This document shows, one piece after another, positions 3,925 through 45,185 of a stretch of DNA of 64,000 bases (the first letter of the stretch is position 1; the number at the start of each line of letters is the position of its first letter). Under the pieces are notes generated by a model. The model saw nothing but the letters and a program-made list of their open reading frames with translations. It was not told where the DNA came from and did not search any database. The DNA comes from a virus, in UHGV virus genome UHGV-1351569. One strand, given 5' to 3'. The position numbers were made by a program, and so were the translations under genes.

Positions 3925-4106
3925 GCCTAAGCAAAGAACAAAAAGATAAATTGTTTGAGCTTATCCATGAACTTCTAGATGAGCATACAGAAGCAAACAC
4001 CTTTTATGATGAATACGGCCCGCTATCTCCCGAACAGCAGGAAGAATTTGCTGATCGGTTTGATAAGAAAGAAAATGAATTAATAGCTTATGTGAATACG
4101 CTTTAA
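3921..4106 (+). CDS. hypothetical protein, 61 aa
   Basis: ORF from track (GTG start), acidic helical. Confidence 0.45.
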   Translation: MSLSKEQKDKLFELIHELLDEHTEANTFYDEYGPLSPEQQEEFADRFDKKENELIAYVNTL

Positions 4107-4115
4107 GAAGGTGAT

Positions 4116-4697
4116 ATGGCGAGTTTAATTTTTACTTATGCAGCAATGAATGCTGGAAAATCTGCTTCTCTTTTGACTGCTGCGCATAATTATAAAGAAC
4201 GCGGAATGGGTGTATTAGTTCTTAAGCCTGCTATTGATACTCGCGATTCTGTCTGTGAAGTCGTTTCTCGCATCGGAATTAAACAGGAAGCGAATATTAT
4301 TACGGATGATATGGATATTTTCGAGTTCTATAAATGGGCTGAAGCACAAAAAGATATTCATTGTGTATTTGTAGATGAAGCTCAGTTTTTAAAAACTGAA
4401 CAGGTGCATCAATTAAGCCGAATTGTTGATACATATAATGTTCCTGTTATGGCTTATGGACTAAGGACTGATTTCGCTGGAAAATTATTTGAAGGTTCTA
4501 AAGAACTTTTGGCGATTGCAGATAAACTTATTGAACTAAAGGCAGTTTGTCATTGTGGTAAAAAAGCTATTATGACAGCTCGATTAATGGAAGATGGAAC
4601 ACCAGTTAAAGAAGGCAATCAAATCTGTATTGGTGATGAAATTTATGTTTCTTTGTGTAGAAAACATTGGAATGAATTAACTAAAAAGCTCGGTTAG
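4116..4697 (+). CDS. tk: thymidine kinase
   Basis: 193 aa; P-loop AAMNAGKS; C-terminal CHCGKKA...CxxH zinc motif typical of type II TK; matches recalled T4 Tk. Confidence 0.95.
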   Translation: MASLIFTYAAMNAGKSASLLTAAHNYKERGMGVLVLKPAIDTRDSVCEVVSRIGIKQEANIITDDMDIFEFYKWAEAQKDIHCVFVDEAQFLKTEQVHQLSRIVDTYNVPVMAYGLRTDFAGKLFEGSKELLAIADKLIELKAVCHCGKKAIMTARLMEDGTPVKEGNQICIGDEIYVSLCRKHWNELTKKLG

Positions 4698-4706
4698 TGC
4701 AAAAGT

Positions 4707-4714
4707 TATAAATA
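4707..4714 (+). promoter_or_regulatory. possible T4 late promoter core (TATAAATA)
   Basis: Exact TATAAATA about 25 nt upstream of the 4740 ORF. Confidence 0.4.
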
Positions 4715-4739
4715 GGTTTATCTAACTAAAGGGGTATAT

Positions 4740-4952
4740 ATGCTACAATTAACTGAAAAGCAACTTCGCAATCTTACTGTTCTTCAATTAGATGAAATTC
4801 GTAGGGAAGTTGGAAATATCATTTCAGCTTTGCGTCGAGAAGTATCGCTCAACCAATCTCCGGCAGACTATACTAGATTGCGAAATTTTGAAAAATACCT
4901 TGATAAAGTTAAGGCCGTGCATCGGCATAAAGTAAATACAGGACAAAAATGA
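4740..4952 (+). CDS. hypothetical protein, 70 aa
   Basis: ORF with ggggtatat RBS. Confidence 0.5.
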
Positions 4953-4964
4953 TAGGAGGCCTTT

Positions 4965-18036: not shown

Positions 18037-18510
18037 ATGTTATTGACTGGCAAATTATATAAAGAAGAAAAACAGAAATTTTATGATGCGCAAAACGGTA
18101 AATGCTTAATTTGCCAACGAGAACTAAATCCTGATGTTCAAGCTAATCACCTTGACCATGACCATGAATTAAATGGACCAAAAGCAGGAAAGGTACGTGG
18201 ATTGCTCTGTAATCTCTGTAATGCTGCAGAAGGTCAAATGAAGCATAAATTCAATCGTTCTGGCTTAAAGGGACAAGGTGTTGATTATCTTGAATGGCTA
18301 GAAAATTTACTTACTTATTTAAAATCCGATTACACCCAAAATAATATTCACCCTAACTTCGTTGGAGATAAATCAAAGGAATTTTCTCGTTTAGGAAAAG
18401 AGGAAATGATGGCTGAGATGCTTCAAAGAGGATTTGAATATAATGAATCTGACACTAAAACACAATTAATAGCTTCATTTAAGAAGCAGCTTAGAAAGAG
18501 TTTAAAATGA
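18037..18510 (+). CDS. 49: endonuclease VII (Holliday-junction resolvase)
   Basis: 157 aa; CxxC...HLDHDH...CNLCN zinc/His-Cys box; matches recalled T4 gp49. Confidence 0.92.
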   Translation: MLLTGKLYKEEKQKFYDAQNGKCLICQRELNPDVQANHLDHDHELNGPKAGKVRGLLCNLCNAAEGQMKHKFNRSGLKGQGVDYLEWLENLLTYLKSDYTQNNIHPNFVGDKSKEFSRLGKEEMMAEMLQRGFEYNESDTKTQLIASFKKQLRKSLK

Positions 18511-19044
18511 CAATTGAAAAAGAAATTGAAGGATTGATTCATAAAACTAATAAAGACCTTTTAAACGAGAATGCTAATAAAGATTCTCGTGTTTTTCCAA
18601 CTCAACGGGACCTTATGGCTGGTATTGTGTCTAAACACATTGCCAAAAATATGGTCCCGTCTTTTATTATGAAAGCGCATGAAAGCGGAATTATCCATTT
18701 CCATGATATTGATTATTCCCCTGCTCTTCCATTTACTAATTGCTGTTTAGTAGATTTAAAAGGAATGCTTGAAAACGGATTTAAGCTCGGTAATGCACAG
18801 ATTGAAACTCCTAAATCAATCGGCGTTGCTACTGCAATTATGGCACAAATTACTGCACAGGTTGCTTCCCACCAATATGGCGGAACGACTTTTGCGAATG
18901 TAGATAAAGTACTTTCTCCTTATGTTAAACGCACCTATGCAAAACATATTGAGGATGCAGAAAAATGGCAAATCGCTGATGCGTTGAATTATGCTCAATC
19001 CAAAACAGAAAAAGATGTCTATGATGCATTCCAGGCGTATGAGT
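18507..19044 (+). CDS. nrdD: anaerobic ribonucleotide reductase NrdD, exon 1
   Basis: Exon ends after gagT where P1 pairing augagu/gcucau with intron IGS is visible. Confidence 0.85.
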
Positions 19045-19254
19045 TAATTTAATTCAGGCTCATGTAAAACCGGTCTAAACGGGGAACCTCTCTAGTAGAC
19101 AATCCCGTGCTAAATGTTCTTTTGAACTAAATGCCTAACGACTAACCGTGATGAATGTAGCGGTGTAGAATAGAAGCTAATGCTATTCGAAACGGCCGGC
19201 ATCGAAAGATGAAGATATAGTCTAATCTGCATGGCGACATGCAGCAGTCATCTT

Positions 19255-19292: not shown

Positions 19293-20063
19293 ATGAAATG
19301 GATAAAAAGACGTTGTACTAAAATAAAAGATAAAGACGCATTTACATACTTAGTTAAGTTTTCTAATGGCGACATTTATATCGGTTATAAAAAAGTTAGA
19401 ACAATTAAAAACAAGCCCACAAACTGGAAAACTTACACAACGTCATCTAAGTATATAAATGAACGCTTAAAAACTGATACACCTACTAAATGGATAATTT
19501 TAAAAACATTTGATAGTTATAAAGACGCATTAAAACATGAAGAAGAGGTCATACGTAAATATTTTTATAGCAAAAAATGTTTAAATAAATCCATAGGCGG
19601 TAAAAAGTTTTATAAGCATCCGGATACTGAAGAACATATTCAAAAATTAAGAGATGCTCATAAGGGTAAAGTGTTATCCGAATCTCATAAAAACAATATA
19701 AAATCTTCTGTAGCTGAATATTATGCTAAAAACGGAAGATCTAAGGAACATGTGCAAAATAATATCAATAGTCGAAAAAGTAAAAAACAAGTATCGATAA
19801 AGCTTAAAAATAAAACTTTTAGAAGTTTTAAAAAAGCGGCGGAATATTTAAATTGCACTGAAAGTGAAGTCGAAACTCATCCTCTTGTTTTGAGTATTAA
19901 GACTACTATTCATAAAGTTCCTGAATATGTGGTTGTTGACGGTATTAAGTATACGTCTTATATAGAAGCAGCTAAAGCGCTAAATTTTCATCCTAGCACT
20001 ATAAAAGAACGTTGCGTATCTATGGACTATCCAAATTTTGTTGTTTCATATAAACGGGCATGA
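19293..20063 (+). CDS. intron-encoded homing endonuclease (I-TevII-like)
   Basis: 256 aa ORF wholly inside the intron; size and position match T4 I-TevII. Confidence 0.8.
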   Translation: MKWIKRRCTKIKDKDAFTYLVKFSNGDIYIGYKKVRTIKNKPTNWKTYTTSSKYINERLKTDTPTKWIILKTFDSYKDALKHEEEVIRKYFYSKKCLNKSIGGKKFYKHPDTEEHIQKLRDAHKGKVLSESHKNNIKSSVAEYYAKNGRSKEHVQNNINSRKSKKQVSIKLKNKTFRSFKKAAEYLNCTESEVETHPLVLSIKTTIHKVPEYVVVDGIKYTSYIEAAKALNFHPSTIKERCVSMDYPNFVVSYKRA

Positions 20064-20077
20064 ATTTGCGACTCATG

Positions 20078-21369
20078 CCGAATATAATGATGAAGTAAAT
20101 ACACTTTTCAGCTCTAATGGACAAACGCCTTTTGTAACAATTACGTTTGGTACGGGAACTGACTGGACTGAACGAATGATTCAGAAAGCAATTCTGAAAA
20201 ATCGTATTAAAGGTCTTGGTCGCGATGGGATAACTCCTATTTTCCCTAAGCTTGTTATGTTCGTTGAAGAAGGTGTTAATCTTTATAAAGATGACCCGAA
20301 CTATGATATTAAACAGCTTGCTCTAGAGTGCGCAAGCAAAAGAATGTATCCTGACATCATTTCGGCTAAGAACAATAAAGCTATCACCGGTTCATCTATT
20401 CCTGTTTCTCCAATGGGTTGCCGCAGTTTCTTGAGCGTATGGAAAGATTCGACTGGTAATGAAATTCTTGATGGACGTAATAATCTTGGCGTTGTAACAC
20501 TGAATCTTCCTCGCATCGCGTTAGATTCTTATATTGGAACACAGTTCAATGAACAGAAATTTGCCGAATTGTTCAATGAACGAATGGATTTATGTTTTGA
20601 AGCTTTGATGTGTAGAATTAGTTCCTTAAAAGGAGTTAAAGCGACTGTTGCTCCTATTCTTTATCAAGAAGGTGCATTCGGGGTTCGTCTTAAACCAGAT
20701 GACGACATAATTGAGTTATTTAAAAACGGTAGAAGTTCAGTGTCTTTGGGATACATTGGTATTCACGAATTGAATATTCTTGTCGGTCGTGATATTGGGC
20801 AGGAAATTTTGACTAAAATGAATGCTCATCTTAAGCAGTGGACTGAAAGAACCGGTTTTGCTTTTAGTTTGTATTCTACACCTGCTGAAAACCTGTGCTA
20901 TCGCTTCTGTAAACTTGATACCGAAAAATATGGAAGTGTAAAGGATGTTACTGATAAAGGCTGGTACACTAACAGTTTCCATGTTTCAGTAGAAGAAAAT
21001 ATCACTCCGTTTGAAAAGATTTCTCGTGAAGCGCCATATCATTTCATTGCGACAGGTGGTCACATTTCTTATGTTGAACTTCCTGATATGAAAAATAACT
21101 TAAAAGGTCTTGAGGCTGTATGGGATTATGCTGCACAACATTTAGATTATTTTGGCGTTAACATGCCAGTAGATAAATGTTTTACGTGTGGAAGTACCCA
21201 TGAAATGACTCCTACTGAAAACGGGTTTGTTTGTTCTATTTGTGGAGAAACTGATCCTAAAAAGATGAACACAATAAGAAGAACTTGTGGTTATTTGGGA
21301 AATCCGAACGAACGTGGATTTAATCTTGGCAAAAATAAAGAAATCATGCATAGGGTTAAACACCAATGA
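20078..21369 (+). CDS. nrdD: anaerobic ribonucleotide reductase NrdD, exon 2
   Basis: In-frame continuation; C-terminal RRTCGYLG glycyl-radical motif; joined product about 609 aa. Confidence 0.85.
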
Positions 21370-25871: not shown

Positions 25872-27074
25872 ATGAAAGTATGCATTTTTATGGCTCGAGG
25901 TCTTGAAGGTTGCGGTGTAACTAAATTTTCTCTTGAGCAACGTGATTGGTTTATTAAAAACGGTCATGAAGTAACTTTAGTTTATGCTAAAGATAAATCA
26001 TTTACCCGTAATTGCGCGCATGATTATAAATCATTTTCAATTCCGGTTTTATTGGCAAAAGAATACGATAAAACACTTAAGCTGGTAAATGATTGTGATA
26101 TTCTAATTATCAATTCAGTTCCTGCTACTTCAGTCGAAGAAGACACTATTAATAACTATAAAAAAATTATTGATAACATTAAACCTTCGGTTCGTGTTGT
26201 AGTTTATCAACATGACCATTCTTCTCTTTCTTTGCGTCGAAATTTGGGATTAGAAGAAACTGTTCGCCGAGCTGATGTTATTTTTAGTCATTCTGATAAT
26301 GGTGATTTTAATAAAGTTCTGATGAAAGAATGGTATCCAGAAACTGTTTCACTGTTTGATGATATTGAAGAAGCACCGACCGTATACAACTTTCAGCCTC
26401 CTATGGATATTGCGAAGGTTCGATCAACCTACTGGAAAGATGTTTCTGAAATTAACATGAATATCAACCGTTGGATTGGTCGTACGACTACATGGAAAGG
26501 TTTTTATCAGATGTTTGATTTTCACGAAAAACATCTTAAACCTGCAGGACTAAGTACTATTATGGAAGGTCTGGAACGTTCTCCAGCGTTCATTCCTATT
26601 AAAGAAAAAGGAATTCCATACGAGTATTATCGTCTTCATCAAGTAGACCAAATTAAAATTGCTCCTAATTTGCCAACGCAAATTCTTGACCGTTATGTAA
26701 ATAGCGAAATGCTTGAACGCATGAGTAAATCCGGATTTGGTTATCAGCTGAGTAAATTAGATAAAAAATATCTACAACGTTCTTTAGAATATACTCATCT
26801 CGAGCTTGGTGCATGTGGAACAATTCCAGTATTTTGGAAATCTACTGGCGAAAATTTAAAATTCCGTGTTGATAATACTCCGTTAATTTCTCATGATAGC
26901 GGTATCGTTTGGTTTGATGAAAATGACATGGAATCAACATTTGAGCGTATTAAAGAACTGTCATCTGACCGAGCTCTTTATGACCGTGAACGCGAAAAAG
27001 CTTATGAATTTTTGTATCAGCATCAAGATTCAAGCTTCTGCTTTAAAGAACAGTTTGACATTATTACAAAATAA
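25872..27074 (+). CDS. agt: DNA alpha-glucosyltransferase
   Basis: 400 aa; near-identical to recalled T4 alpha-gt along its length. Confidence 0.92.
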   Translation: MKVCIFMARGLEGCGVTKFSLEQRDWFIKNGHEVTLVYAKDKSFTRNCAHDYKSFSIPVLLAKEYDKTLKLVNDCDILIINSVPATSVEEDTINNYKKIIDNIKPSVRVVVYQHDHSSLSLRRNLGLEETVRRADVIFSHSDNGDFNKVLMKEWYPETVSLFDDIEEAPTVYNFQPPMDIAKVRSTYWKDVSEINMNINRWIGRTTTWKGFYQMFDFHEKHLKPAGLSTIMEGLERSPAFIPIKEKGIPYEYYRLHQVDQIKIAPNLPTQILDRYVNSEMLERMSKSGFGYQLSKLDKKYLQRSLEYTHLELGACGTIPVFWKSTGENLKFRVDNTPLISHDSGIVWFDENDMESTFERIKELSSDRALYDREREKAYEFLYQHQDSSFCFKEQFDIITK

Positions 27075-36900: not shown

Positions 36901-37152
36901 ATGAAAAATATTCAAACTAATTTTATTCAAAATTTAAAAGTTGTTAACGCAGAAAAAGCGAATAAACTTTTTAAAGTTAAAGAATTTGAAAATGAAGGTA
37001 ACACTTACGGTATTATAGAACAAAATGGAATGGTGACTGGATTAGAAATTTATAATGGTAAAGGAAAATTTCAGTCACAGCCAATTTCTGTTATGGGTGT
37101 AAGAAAAGGAATTAAAACTGAAGATGCTTTAAAGTTATTTGTTAAGTTTTAA
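36901..37152 (+). CDS. hypothetical protein, 83 aa
   Basis: ORF downstream of conserved leader. Confidence 0.55.
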   Translation: MKNIQTNFIQNLKVVNAEKANKLFKVKEFENEGNTYGIIEQNGMVTGLEIYNGKGKFQSQPISVMGVRKGIKTEDALKLFVKF

Positions 37153-37552: not shown

Positions 37553-37804
37553 ATGGAAACTTTAGTAGCAGGTTCAATTTTTATGGTTTTAGTTTCAGGT
37601 GTGTTGGCTATTATTATATACATGCTTCCATGGTTTATCGCCTTGATGCGTGGGTCAAAATCGACAGTAGGAATCTTTTTCACATCTTTACTGTTTAACT
37701 GGTCAATTATTGGTTGGTTTATTACATTTATTTGGTCAATTGCAGGTGAAACTAAAAAGTCTGCACAGCCAAATCAGGTAATTATCATCAGAGAGAAGGA
37801 ATGA
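37553..37804 (+). CDS. imm: superinfection immunity protein Imm
   Basis: 83 aa, two TM helices, position before gene 42. Confidence 0.8.
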   Translation: METLVAGSIFMVLVSGVLAIIIYMLPWFIALMRGSKSTVGIFFTSLLFNWSIIGWFITFIWSIAGETKKSAQPNQVIIIREKE

Positions 37805-37950
37805 AAAGCAAAATTATAACAGTGTTGCTTTTAATCTTGATGATTATAATAAGTATATACTATAGTGTAACGGTTCCTCTTATGATTCCAACTATTATTT
37901 TAGGTTGGGGTTTATTACTGTTACAAGTTAAATATGAATGTATCAATTGA
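37801..37950 (+). CDS. small membrane protein, 49 aa (below track cutoff)
   Basis: Hand-translated; aATGa overlap with imm stop; strongly hydrophobic. Confidence 0.4.
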   Translation: MKSKIITVLLLILMIIISIYYSVTVPLMIPTIILGWGLLLLQVKYECIN

Positions 37951-37957
37951 GGTTTAA

Positions 37958-38698
37958 ATGATTAGTGACTCTATGACAGTTGAAGAAATCCGTCTTCATT
38001 TGGGACTTGCATTAAAAGAAAAAGATTTCGTAGTTGATAAAACTGGCGTTAAAACTATTGAAATTATTGGCGCATCATTTGTAGCAGATGAACCGTTTAT
38101 TTTTGGCGCTCTTAATGATGAATACATTCAGCGTGAACTTGAATGGTATAAATCTAAAAGCTTGTTCGTTAAAGATATTCCAGGTGAAACACCGAAGATT
38201 TGGCAACAAGTAGCATCTTCTAAAGGTGAAATTAACTCGAATTATGGTTGGGCTATCTGGTCAGAAGATAACTATGCCCAGTATGATATGTGTTTAGCTG
38301 AACTTGGTCAAAATCCTGATTCTCGACGTGGTATCATGATTTATACTCGTCCATCCATGCAATTTGACTACAATAAAGATGGCATGTCAGATTTCATGTG
38401 TACTAATACAGTACAGTACCTGATTCGTGATAAGAAAGTCAATGCAGTAGTAAGCATGCGCTCAAATGATGTGGTCTTCGGATTCCGTAATGATTATGCA
38501 TGGCAAAAATACGTATTAGATAAATTAGTATCTGATTTGAATGCAGGCGATTCAACTCGTCAGTATAAAGCAGGTTCTATTATATGGAATGTTGGAAGTC
38601 TTCATGTATATTCTCGTCATTTTTACTTGGTTGATCATTGGTGGAATACTGGCGAAACTCATATTGTGAAAAAAGATTATAACGGTGAGTGGAAATGA
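37958..38698 (+). CDS. 42: dCMP hydroxymethylase gp42
   Basis: 246 aa; thymidylate-synthase-like fold; size and position as in T4. Confidence 0.9.
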   Translation: MISDSMTVEEIRLHLGLALKEKDFVVDKTGVKTIEIIGASFVADEPFIFGALNDEYIQRELEWYKSKSLFVKDIPGETPKIWQQVASSKGEINSNYGWAIWSEDNYAQYDMCLAELGQNPDSRRGIMIYTRPSMQFDYNKDGMSDFMCTNTVQYLIRDKKVNAVVSMRSNDVVFGFRNDYAWQKYVLDKLVSDLNAGDSTRQYKAGSIIWNVGSLHVYSRHFYLVDHWWNTGETHIVKKDYNGEWK

Positions 38699-39537
38699 TT
38701 CAATTCGTAATTCCAAGCTATCAACGCGTAGGGGCAGTTTCTGCCCTTGATATGTTTCCGACTGATTATGAACCTCATATTGTAGTACGTGAACACGAAG
38801 AAAAAGCTTATTATGACGCTTACGGGTCTAGGGCTAAAATTATAACTATTCCTGATGATGTAAACGGAATTGCCGGTACTCGTAAAGCAATTACTGATAT
38901 GTATGCAGGTCAACGAATCTGGATGATTGACGATGATACTACTATTCGTATGAGTTCAATGCGAAAAAGAGATGATCGTCGTTGTGTAGATAAAGTCAAT
39001 CAATTGACTCGTGAACAGTTCTATGAATTGATTCAATATGTTGAGGATGCCATGGATTGTGGGTATTATCATGGCCATGCTCGTCTACCTATTTTTAAAA
39101 TTACTTCATCTTGGGGTAATTATCGTGAAAATTCATATGGATTCACGAATACATGGTATGACCTCGGAAAACTTACTACAGAACAAATTGGGTATGGAAA
39201 AATTGATTTATGCGAAGATATGTATGCATTTCTCAATTTAATTAATCAAGGTTATCCGCATTTGGCCTTGTTCAAATATCTGGTTGTATCTGGAAAAGCA
39301 CAAGCTCCTGGCGGGTGTAGTTCAATTCGTAGTAATTCTAAACATAATAGAGCGCTTGAGCAAATCAATAGAGAGTTTCCAGAGCAAGCTCGTTGGAAAA
39401 CTTCTAATATTGAAAAACGAAAATCGTTGGGTGAAGAAGACGAGCCATTAAAGGTTCTTCGTATGTGTGTTTCGCGTAAAGAAAAATCAGAAGCATTTCA
39501 TAAGTTTAATGCTATTCATCCAATAGCAGTTGATTAA
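38695..39537 (+). CDS. putative DNA glycosyltransferase (T2/T6 beta-alpha-gt-like), 280 aa
   Basis: Occupies the 42-uvsX slot where T4 has beta-gt but does not resemble T4 beta-gt; ATG 38695 overlaps gene 42 stop. Confidence 0.5.
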   Translation: MIQFVIPSYQRVGAVSALDMFPTDYEPHIVVREHEEKAYYDAYGSRAKIITIPDDVNGIAGTRKAITDMYAGQRIWMIDDDTTIRMSSMRKRDDRRCVDKVNQLTREQFYELIQYVEDAMDCGYYHGHARLPIFKITSSWGNYRENSYGFTNTWYDLGKLTTEQIGYGKIDLCEDMYAFLNLINQGYPHLALFKYLVVSGKAQAPGGCSSIRSNSKHNRALEQINREFPEQARWKTSNIEKRKSLGEEDEPLKVLRMCVSRKEKSEAFHKFNAIHPIAVD

Positions 39538-39614
39538 TGCCTAAATTTATTGTGTTATAATTACCCTATCTTTAACCAGTGAGGAAAATATAATGATGCC
39601 TATGGAAAAAATGA

Positions 39615-40796
39615 ATGTCTATTGCAGATTTAAAATCCCGTTTGATTAAAGCTTCCACTTCTAAAATGACTGCTGAACTGACTACATCTAAATTCTTTAA
39701 TGAAAAGGATGTAATCCGTACAAAAATCCCAATGCTTAATATCGCTATTTCAGGTGCGATTGACGGTGGTATGCAGTCTGGTTTAACCATTTTTGCAGGT
39801 CCTTCTAAACACTTTAAATCAAATATGTCTTTGACTATGGTTGCGGCGTATTTGAACAAATATCCTGACGCGGTATGTCTATTCTATGATAGCGAATTTG
39901 GTATTACACCAGCTTATTTGCGATCCATGGGAGTTGACCCGGAACGAGTAATTCATACACCAATTCAGTCAGTTGAACAGCTGAAAATTGATATGGTGAA
40001 TCAGCTTGAAGCTATTGAGCGTGGTGAAAAAGTTATTGTATTCATCGACTCAATCGGTAATATGGCTTCTAAGAAAGAAACGGAAGATGCCTTGAATGAA
40101 AAATCTGTGGCAGATATGACTCGTGCTAAATCACTGAAGTCATTATTCCGTATTGTTACTCCTTATTTTAGTATTAAAAACATTCCATGTGTTGCGGTTA
40201 ACCATACAATTGAAACAATTGAAATGTTTAGTAAAACCGTGATGACAGGTGGTACAGGCGTAATGTATTCGGCTGATACTGTATTCATTATCGGTAAGCG
40301 CCAGATTAAAGATGGTTCTGATCTTCAGGGGTATCAATTTGTTCTAAATGTAGAAAAATCTCGTACCGTTAAAGAAAAAAGTAAATTCTTTATTGATGTT
40401 AAATTTGATGGTGGTATCGATCCTTATTCTGGATTGCTAGATATGGCTCTAGAATTAGGATTTGTAGTAAAACCTAAGAATGGTTGGTATGCTCGTGAAT
40501 TTCTTGATGAAGAAACCGGCGAGATGATTCGCGAAGAAAAATCTTGGCGTGCAAAAGATACCAACTGCACTACATTCTGGGGTCCTTTATTTAAGCATCA
40601 ACCATTCCGAGATGCTATTAAACGTGCTTATCAGTTAGGTGCTATTGATAGTAATGAAATTGTTGAAGCTGAAGTTGACGAATTGATTAACTCAAAGGTT
40701 GAAAAATTTAAATCTCCAGAAAGTAAAAGTAAATCAGCAGCTGATTTAGAAACTGACCTAGAACAGTTAAGTGATATGGAAGAATTTAATGAATAA
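39615..40796 (+). CDS. uvsX: recombinase UvsX (RecA-like)
   Basis: 393 aa; Walker A GPSKHFKS; very similar to recalled T4 UvsX. Confidence 0.95.
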   Translation: MSIADLKSRLIKASTSKMTAELTTSKFFNEKDVIRTKIPMLNIAISGAIDGGMQSGLTIFAGPSKHFKSNMSLTMVAAYLNKYPDAVCLFYDSEFGITPAYLRSMGVDPERVIHTPIQSVEQLKIDMVNQLEAIERGEKVIVFIDSIGNMASKKETEDALNEKSVADMTRAKSLKSLFRIVTPYFSIKNIPCVAVNHTIETIEMFSKTVMTGGTGVMYSADTVFIIGKRQIKDGSDLQGYQFVLNVEKSRTVKEKSKFFIDVKFDGGIDPYSGLLDMALELGFVVKPKNGWYAREFLDEETGEMIREEKSWRAKDTNCTTFWGPLFKHQPFRDAIKRAYQLGAIDSNEIVEAEVDELINSKVEKFKSPESKSKSAADLETDLEQLSDMEEFNE

Positions 40797-43434: not shown

Positions 43435-43791
43435 ATGTATAGTTCTGAATTTTCATATTTAAAAATGGAAAAAATTTCATACGATTTTATAGATGAAAAG
43501 GTTTATTATAGTTTCCATGAACCACGTTTTAACAGTGAAGTCGGTTTTATTGTAGTAAAAGATAATTTCATTTTAAAAATATATTCGGCATTAAAGGATT
43601 TTCACTACGAAAATATTAACCTAAAATTTGATAAAGAAAACGTTCATAATTGTGCAGTAACAATTACAGGAAATAAAGGTACATGTGTTATGCTATCTGA
43701 TGAAATTAATGATTTGTTAAATGATGTAGAAAAGGTTGCTGTTCCATCAATTGATGACCAAATTTTTAACGCTTTTATGAATAGAGGTTAA
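43435..43791 (+). CDS. adfA: 61.2-position protein (anti-DarT factor AdfA in T4-like phages)
   Basis: 118 aa at the 61.2 slot between sp and 61; identity rests on synteny and size. Confidence 0.55.
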   Translation: MYSSEFSYLKMEKISYDFIDEKVYYSFHEPRFNSEVGFIVVKDNFILKIYSALKDFHYENINLKFDKENVHNCAVTITGNKGTCVMLSDEINDLLNDVEKVAVPSIDDQIFNAFMNRG

Positions 43792-43959: not shown

Positions 43960-44988
43960 ATGTCATCAATACCTTGGATTGATAATGAGTTTGCATACCG
44001 TGCATTGGCTCATTTACCTAAATTCACACAAGTAAATAATAGTTCAACTTTTAAATTGCGGTTTAGATGCCCTGTTTGTGGAGATTCAAAAACCGACCAA
44101 AATAAAGCTCGTGGATGGTATTACGGTGATAATAATGAAGGAAATATTCATTGTTATAACTGTAACTATCATGCACCAATCGGAATATATTTAAAGGAGT
44201 TTGAACCTGATTTATATCGTGAGTATATCTTTGAAATAAGAAAAGAAAAAGGTAAAAGTCGTCCAGTAGAAAAACCTAAAGAACTTCCTAAGCGACCTGA
44301 GAAGAAAATAATTAAATCTCTTCCGTCATGTGTTAGATTAGATAAACTGGCGGAAGACCATCCAATTATAAAATATGTAAAAGCTCGTTGTATTCCAAAG
44401 GATAAATGGAAATATCTTTGGTTTACAACCGAATGGCCTAAATTAGTTAATAGTATAGCACCGGGAACATACAAAAAGGAAATACCTGAGCCTCGTCTTG
44501 TTATTCCAATTTATAATGCTAATGGAAAAGCTGAGTCTTTTCAAGGCCGTGCGTTAAAGAAAGATGCTCCTCAAAAATATATCACCATCAAAGCTTATCC
44601 TGAGGCAACAAAAATCTATGGAGTCGAACGAGTCAAAGATGGTGATGTATATGTTCTAGAAGGACCTATAGATTCACTTTTTATTGAAAATGGTATAGCT
44701 ATTACAGGTGGTCAATTAGACCTAGAAATTGTTCCATTTAAAGATAGACGTGTATGGGTTTTAGATAATGAACCTCGTCATCCTGACACTATTAAACGAA
44801 TGACTAAATTAGTTGATGCAGGAGAAAGGGTTATGTTTTGGGATAAATCTCCCTGGAAATCAAAAGATGTTAATGATATGATTAGAAAGGAAGGTGCAAC
44901 CCCTGAACAAATTATGGAATATATGAAAAATAATATTGCCCAGGGGTTAATGGCTAAAATGCGGCTATCTAAATATGCCAAGATTTAA
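43960..44988 (+). CDS. 61: DNA primase gp61
   Basis: 342 aa; N-terminal zinc ribbon CPVCGDS...CYNCNYH; matches T4 gp61 size. Confidence 0.93.
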   Translation: MSSIPWIDNEFAYRALAHLPKFTQVNNSSTFKLRFRCPVCGDSKTDQNKARGWYYGDNNEGNIHCYNCNYHAPIGIYLKEFEPDLYREYIFEIRKEKGKSRPVEKPKELPKRPEKKIIKSLPSCVRLDKLAEDHPIIKYVKARCIPKDKWKYLWFTTEWPKLVNSIAPGTYKKEIPEPRLVIPIYNANGKAESFQGRALKKDAPQKYITIKAYPEATKIYGVERVKDGDVYVLEGPIDSLFIENGIAITGGQLDLEIVPFKDRRVWVLDNEPRHPDTIKRMTKLVDAGERVMFWDKSPWKSKDVNDMIRKEGATPEQIMEYMKNNIAQGLMAKMRLSKYAKI

Positions 44989-45185
44989 ATTAACCCAACC
45001 AAAGCAAATGCTAAATCTACGAATGTATCAAGAGTAACTACTGGAATATTAATACCATGCGCAATAGCTACTGGCGATAAAACAAAATTCCAAAGTAAAA
45101 TTCCTATCATAGCAGAAATAGTAAAAGCTATACGTTTTTTATTACCTTTGATGGCATTAACAAGTGCCATTAATTTTTGTACCAT
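44985..45185 (-). CDS. small hydrophobic protein, 66 aa, opposite strand
   Basis: Only ORF in the 61-56 gap; AAGGAGGA RBS 5 nt before ATG on minus strand; two hydrophobic segments. Confidence 0.55.
   Translation of the reverse strand: MVQKLMALVNAIKGNKKRIAFTISAMIGILLWNFVLSPVAIAHGINIPVVTLDTFVDLAFALVGLI

Follow-up and report, generated by a model that had tools for sequence, protein, structure and literature searches.

A very probable T2/T6-type beta-glucosyl-HMC-alpha-glucosyltransferase gene at the beta-gt locus of a mosaic Tequatrovirus

The 280-aa reading frame found between gene 42 and uvsX in a 64,000-nucleotide stretch of viral DNA (UHGV-1351569; the whole stretch is called the window below) was assigned with high confidence to the beta-glucosyl-HMC-alpha-glucosyltransferase of the T2/T6 type (ba-gt, alias g-gt or TAGT) together with the pathway proposed for it. 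The identity of the gene, its synteny, fold, motifs and pathway partners were established in this analysis, and the chemistry and the phenotypes were taken from the literature. The enzyme is a named textbook one at its usual locus in T4-like coliphages, already known, and its annotation is routine. The result for the window opens no new question; the wider interest lies only in the alleles of the reference phages T2 and T6.

The locus between gene 42 and uvsX

The gene and its surroundings in the window are as follows.

37958..38698, + strand: gene 42, dCMP hydroxymethylase, 246 aa (Pfam Thymidylat_synt PF00303; identity to T4 gp42)
38681..39622, + strand: cassette variable relative to T4, ~940 bp (boundaries of the T4 alignment)
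38695..39537, + strand: ba-gt/TAGT coding sequence, very probable beta-glucosyl-HMC-alpha-glucosyltransferase, 280 aa (sequence identity, synteny, fold, motifs)
39615..40796, + strand: uvsX, right flank of the locus (Pfam T4_UVSX_C PF21134 and RecA PF00154)

The ORF listing of the window gives ba-gt on the + strand from a GTG at 38689 to 39537 (282 aa), and the frame counted from the ATG at 38695 to the stop at 39537 has 280 aa. This listing and the Pfam matches of the flanking genes agreed with the initial annotation, which had placed a 280-aa ORF at 38695-39537 between gene 42 and uvsX. It had also put a 351-aa b-gt at this locus of T4, and the T4 annotation indeed has a 1056-bp b-gt (351 aa) in the same interval, together with the homing endonuclease gene segA. 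According to the record annotations, uvsX has the same position in T2, T6, and T4, and the window gp42 is identical to that of T4 at 238 of 245 positions (97%).

The stop codon of gene 42 and the ATG of ba-gt are joined in an ATGA overlap, which is the same in T2, and a purine-rich run (GGTGAG) is located 8-13 nt 5' of the ATG. The two genes share a transcript, and the overlap suggests that the translation of ba-gt is probably coupled to that of gene 42 as well. The consensus scans round ba-gt yielded 19 sigma-70 promoter-like sites versus 14.7 ± 4.2 in shuffled sequence and three terminator-like sites versus 1.6 ± 1.3, neither number being above expectation, and so provided no regulatory signal of use. 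A hairpin picked up by the terminator scan (38729-38749, + strand; 9-bp stem with 5 G-C pairs, TAGGGGCAG-TTT-CTGCCCTTG) lies inside the coding sequence, directly 3' of the Arg11 codon; it spans codons 12-18 and has the same sequence in T2 and T6.

Homology to T4 breaks off close to the end of gene 42, within its last ~6 codons (~38680), and is back at codon 3-4 of uvsX (~39623). The cassette enclosed measures ~940 bp, versus ~1.9 kb for b-gt and segA in T4. The alignments of the window to T2 and T6 run without a break through the whole ba-gt region at ~98-99% identity. The GC and GC3 values of ba-gt match those of the neighbour genes, which makes it a long-resident gene and not a recent foreign insert. 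The window overall is a mosaic Tequatrovirus, the best matches in the phage collection showing ~96-97% identity over 20 kb; no record identical to the window was found in that collection.

The 77-bp spacer before uvsX (39538-39614, + strand) is without a T4 counterpart; in T4, segA abuts uvsX. It contains TATAAT at 39556-39561 and, ~12 bp 5' of it, TGCCTAA, a pair of elements that we take to resemble a T4 MotA-dependent middle promoter. The uvsX product of the window has 393 aa; compared with T4, its gene has two additional codons following Met-Ser.

Several other features of the window deserve a record. An 83-aa ORF (36901-37152, + strand) between gene 43 and imm.1 has no Pfam match; it corresponds to the hypothetical T2_046 in T2, and only an unannotated gap of ~180 bp is present in T4 and T6. 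The gap between imm and gene 42, ~150 bp long and unannotated in the T2, T4, and T6 records, is filled by a very hydrophobic 49-aa ORF (37801-37950, + strand) that begins MKSKIITVLLLILMIIISIYY and shares an ATGA overlap with the imm stop; it may represent an unannotated small membrane protein. A group I intron was detected at 19013-19244 (+ strand; Rfam RF00028, 75.4 bits, E = 2.5e-17), followed by a 256-aa ORF at 19293-20063 that lies between the exon-like ORFs 18507-19052 and 20038-21369; the arrangement resembles the nrdD (sunY) intron and its homing endonuclease. Finally, the match of a 118-aa ORF (43435-43791, + strand) to Pfam AdfA, the family of the anti-DarT factor (gene 61.2), is confined to the C-terminal half of the profile (positions 113-211 of 211); the ORF is a shortened version likewise annotated in T2.

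Identity, predicted fold and conserved residues

A megablast search with the 843 bp of ba-gt found 475 phage records, all with a gene coverage of 80% or more and an identity of 90-99%, and most of them belonging to Tequatrovirus phages of Escherichia, Shigella, and Yersinia. In those matching records that name the gene, it is called "beta-glucosyl-HMC-alpha-glucosyltransferase", "ba-gt", or "ggt". The protein is identical to the T2 enzyme at 278 of 280 positions (99%), to the T6 enzyme (AP018814) at 276 of 280, and to the TAGT of RB14 and vB_Eco_Solly throughout (100%). It is matched by PHROG 842 (beta-glucosyl-HMC-alpha-glucosyltransferase; E = 6e-89) and by Pfam PF20691 TAGT (38.9 bits versus a gathering cutoff of 27.5; profile positions 2-205 of 205), and no other Pfam family reached E <= 1. 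A PF20691 match is also precomputed for the homologues P0001-P0011. The family has 336 representatives within a library of 1.84 billion proteins, and NCBIfam has no model for either ba-gt or alpha-gt. In the BLASTP comparison with T4 b-gt no similarity was seen (best E = 2.2). Both the lack of resemblance to T4 beta-gt and the glycosyltransferase of a non-T4 kind at its locus, as they had been read from the sequence in the initial annotation, are borne out, the former by this comparison and the latter by the 99% identity to T2/T6, PHROG 842, and Pfam TAGT.

The fold predicted for the protein, as judged from a confident structure model and a fold comparison, is that of a GT-A glycosyltransferase. 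It has the acidic DxD motif that accompanies this fold in PF20691 TAGT, and the two-Rossmann-domain GT-B fold was not found. The fold prediction agrees with the view that the frame encodes a glycosyltransferase. Independently, the T6 protein was assigned to GT-A as a sister of GT2 on the basis of an AlphaFold3 model (PMC13216743).

The residue conservation was read from an alignment of 147 homologues, and three sites stood out.

38725..38727, + strand: Arg11 codon CGC, in the IPSYQR motif directly after strand beta1
38929..38937, + strand: Asp79-Asp80-Asp81 codons, DxD-type motif with an inferred role in metal/UDP binding (conservation, model, 9jma alignment)
39214..39219, + strand: Glu174-Asp175 codons ("ED" motif), candidate catalytic base (conservation; GT2 analogy)

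Arg11 is invariant in all 142 family members having that position. The DDD motif, placed at the end of the modelled strand 74-78, is conserved at Asp79 in 145, at Asp80 in 147, and at Asp81 in 138 of the 147 sequences. Glu174 was found in 123 of them and Asp175 in all 147; G206/G207 and R212 are invariant or nearly so too. Every invariant residue is intact in the window protein.

In GT2-type enzymes, the DxD motif binds metal-UDP, and the aspartate of the ED motif serves as the catalytic base of the inverting mechanism. By analogy, the DDD at 79-81 would hold a divalent metal and UDP, and Asp175 would act as the catalytic base. An inverting mechanism fits, since a beta product is formed from UDP-alpha-glucose. 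When the sequence is aligned, though only weakly, with AvpGT (9jma), IPSYxR falls on IPTYNR, DDD on DDDD, and ED on EED. The PDB search with the single protein gave nothing meaningful (best E = 1.6, an unrelated PNPOx-like protein). With the family profile the best glycosyltransferase was non-significant (E = 1.1), and the top match was a de novo TIM barrel (E = 0.003) aligned via a low-complexity DD stretch. As no solved structure of a TAGT-family member was found in the PDB, the residue roles are drawn from the model and the GT2 analogy. The resemblance to GT2-type transferases is visible in structure comparison only.

Predicted DNA modification and the alleles of T2 and T6

The second transferase of the proposed pathway was found elsewhere in the window.

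25872..27074, + strand: alpha-gt, DNA alpha-glucosyltransferase, full length (Pfam AGT, E = 2.4e-236)

It matches the T4 AGT crystal structures 1XV5/1Y6F over residues 1-400 (E = 5e-257) and is matched by 504 phage records; the initial annotation had rightly called it conserved. A tblastn search of the whole window with T4 b-gt gave a best E of 1.4, so that no such gene lies within these 64 kb of the ~166-kb genome, and no paralogue of ba-gt or alpha-gt was found within the 64-kb window either. With alpha-gt and gp42 present and no T4-type beta-gt in the window, the gene content supports the T2/T6-like pattern (gentiobiosyl, not beta-glucosyl) that had been suggested from the beginning.

In the proposed pathway, gp42 would make hm-dCMP, which would then be incorporated at replication, and alpha-gt would move glucose from UDP-glucose to hmC in an alpha linkage. 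The ba-gt product, a GT-A-fold, GT2-like enzyme with no relation to alpha-gt or T4 beta-gt, both of which are GT-B enzymes, would use UDP-glucose to attach another glucose to the first one through a beta-1,6 linkage, giving gentiobiosyl-hmC. The role of this step would be counter-defence, the second sugar hiding alpha-glucosyl-hmC from enzymes like the glycosylase Brig1 and the deglucosylase BapA.

In T2 and T6, the enzyme is known to glucosylate the already alpha-glucosylated hmC, which yields the gentiobiosyl base (PMC13216743). When ba-gt is deleted, T6 is left with only alpha-glucosyl-hmC and becomes more Brig1-sensitive (PMC11078745), and the DNA of such a mutant becomes a substrate of the BapA deglucosylase (bioRxiv 10.64898/2026.02.25.707755). 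Depending on the phage, a TAGT homologue accompanies alpha-GT, accompanies beta-GT, or stands alone; among 753 GT-encoding phage genomes, no more than 6 have the pair of alpha-GT and beta-GT as in T4, which makes alpha-GT with TAGT the common arrangement (PMC13216743). In the Durham Tequatrovirus phages, alpha-GT is accompanied by a TAGT syntenic with the T4 beta-GT, and HPLC/MS showed alpha-gentiobiosyl-hmC and no beta-glucosyl-hmC in their DNA (PMC13390438). Solly DNA contains ~1/3 5-hmdC, ~2/3 alpha-gentiobiosyl-hmC, and mono-alpha-glucosyl residues at the background level, while the Geo/EL/BGP phages have a ratio of 1:2:2 despite the same gene set (PMC13390438).

The term "T2/T6-like" spans two very different outcomes. 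T6 DNA is ~72% gentiobiosyl. For T2 DNA a level of only ~5% is reported (PMC6024577, PMC13390438). From its sequence, the window allele is predicted to give the high level of the T6/Solly type, because its protein is identical to that of Solly and lacks the His11 of T2. In the virion DNA, hmC would then make up ~1/3 and gentiobiosyl-hmC ~2/3, mono-alpha-glucosyl-hmC would be scarce, and beta-glucosyl-hmC would be absent, as expected of a Solly-identical protein with all invariant residues. The expression level and the kinetics or activity of alpha-gt could shift the final hmC ratio. No Dam-type motif DPPY/NPPY ([DN]PP[YFW]) was found in the ORFs of at least 120 aa within the 64-kb window, and the distance from the primase gene (gene 61) to the next ORF is only 176 bp (44988-45164), so that dam would not fit between genes 61 and 56. 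In this respect the window resembles the Dam-less, high-gentiobiosyl Solly group and not the Geo group (PMC13390438). Taking together gp42, alpha-gt, the intact ba-gt, and the lack of b-gt and Dam in the window, we infer that DNA of the T6/Solly type is to be expected.

A weak allele or weak expression would instead produce T2-like DNA, composed mostly of mono-alpha-glucosyl-hmC with a few percent of gentiobiosyl-hmC. Such an outcome has precedents, as the T2 gene is 99% identical and yet T2 DNA has the low level given above (PMC6024577, PMC13390438), and relatives with the same genes, namely the Geo group with its 1:2:2, show intermediate ratios (PMC13390438). We nevertheless regard it as improbable for this phage: both T2-specific substitutions (H11 and S251) are absent, all invariant residues are kept, the protein is that of Solly, whose DNA is ~2/3 gentiobiosyl (PMC13390438), and the lack of a Dam-type motif and of space for dam is shared with the Solly group, unlike the Geo group. 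Still less credence can be given to another specificity, whether for a different sugar, for example arabinose, or for hmC itself as the acceptor. Although specificity does vary across the TAGT family (PMC13216743), the identity to the enzymes of T2, T6, and Solly, phages with measured DNA chemistry, is 99-100%, and gp42 is of the hydroxymethylase type (97% to T4) and not the 5-hydroxy-dCMP synthase type of the arabinosylating Mosigvirus (PMC13390438). The arabinosyl-type modification was rejected on account of this T4-type gp42 and of the identity of the protein to one from a glucose-modified phage. That the frame is a chance or non-functional one has a negligible probability, and the conservation in 475 records and 336 family representatives, the confident fold model, and the conserved catalytic motifs rule it out.

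As a T2/T6-type Tequatrovirus, the phage should thus have gentiobiosyl-hmC and no beta-glucosyl-hmC in its DNA. Towards modification-dependent defences, the phage is predicted to be relatively protected from Brig1 and BapA and to stay exposed, via the ~1/3 of unglucosylated hmC, to GmrSD/BrxU-type enzymes and the 5hmC-specific Brig3.

The comparison revealed atypical alleles in the reference phages. All three T2 ba-gt records covered, which are independent of one another (LC348380, with the gene at 4001-4843 of the locus, MH751506, and PV958097) encode His11, versus Arg in 142 of 142 family members, at the position corresponding to 38725-38727 of the window; the second T2 substitution, S251, falls at a variable position. 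The two T6 stocks that have been sequenced carry different, independent lesions. The T6 record MH550421 has a TAG amber at codon 10 (locus 4951-4953, minus strand), and for this reason the annotation of its "ggt" starts at Met20. In the T6 record AP018814/NC_054907 Gln10 is present, and one GAT is lost from a perfect (GAT)3 tract (locus 1030 region), which shortens DDD to DD and the protein to 279 aa; the DDD codons are GAC GAT GAT in the window, T2, and Solly.

The literature covered offers no sequence explanation for the T2/T6 gentiobiosyl difference, and R11H is a candidate reason for the ~5% of T2 versus the ~72% of T6. We tentatively put forward a broader reading, more doubtful than probable, in which the window carries the intact wild-type ba-gt, the alleles of the classical laboratory phages are damaged, and the T2 pattern reflects a hypomorphic allele and not regulation. 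If it is true, the window phage would be at the high gentiobiosyl level of the T6/Solly type. Atypical or defective T2/T6 reference alleles matter wherever those records or stocks serve as standards; for example, a "T6 TAGT" modelled from the RefSeq entry would have one Asp of the DDD missing. The T6 and T2 lesions are absent from the window, and the verdict on its gene is unaffected by them.

Comparison with known systems

The ba-gt of T2 and T6 (PHROG 842) is the same gene as that of the window, with a common length, position between gene 42 and uvsX, ATGA overlap, and alpha-gt partner. The alleles differ in detail: T2 has His11 and Ser251 where the window has Arg11 and Pro251, and both the amber at codon 10 in T6 MH550421 and the loss of one Asp from the DDD motif in T6 AP018814 are absent from the window. 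The TAGT of vB_Eco_Solly and RB14 is an identical protein at the same locus, the DNA showing ~1.9% synonymous differences.

The window protein has the GT-A fold and the DDD motif in common with the PF20691 TAGT family, of which it is a distant member. The acceptor of ba-gt is the sugar already on the base, whereas that of PF20691 TAGT is the hydroxymethyl group of the base. The family name refers to TET/JBP dioxygenases acting on DNA; the hmC of T-even phages is made by gp42 at the nucleotide level instead. An association with TET/JBP is therefore not expected in the window, nor is it needed for PF20691 membership.

T4 b-gt is like ba-gt in its syntenic locus after gene 42, its use of UDP-glucose, its beta linkage, and its hmC DNA. 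It has, however, a GT-B fold (PMC13216743), whereas a GT-A fold is predicted for the window protein. The T4 enzyme (351 aa) acts on free hmC, and the window enzyme (280 aa), being of the T2/T6 type, would extend alpha-glucosyl-hmC. The T4 locus also has segA, which the window lacks.

The cellular GT2-type inverting GT-A enzymes (for example, AvpGT 9jma, TarS 5tze, GlfT2 4fix, and SpsA 1h7l) are 8-16% identical to the window protein, which has no match to the GT2 profile Pfam Glycos_transf_2. They differ from it in the acceptor, which for the ba-gt of the window would be glycosylated DNA.
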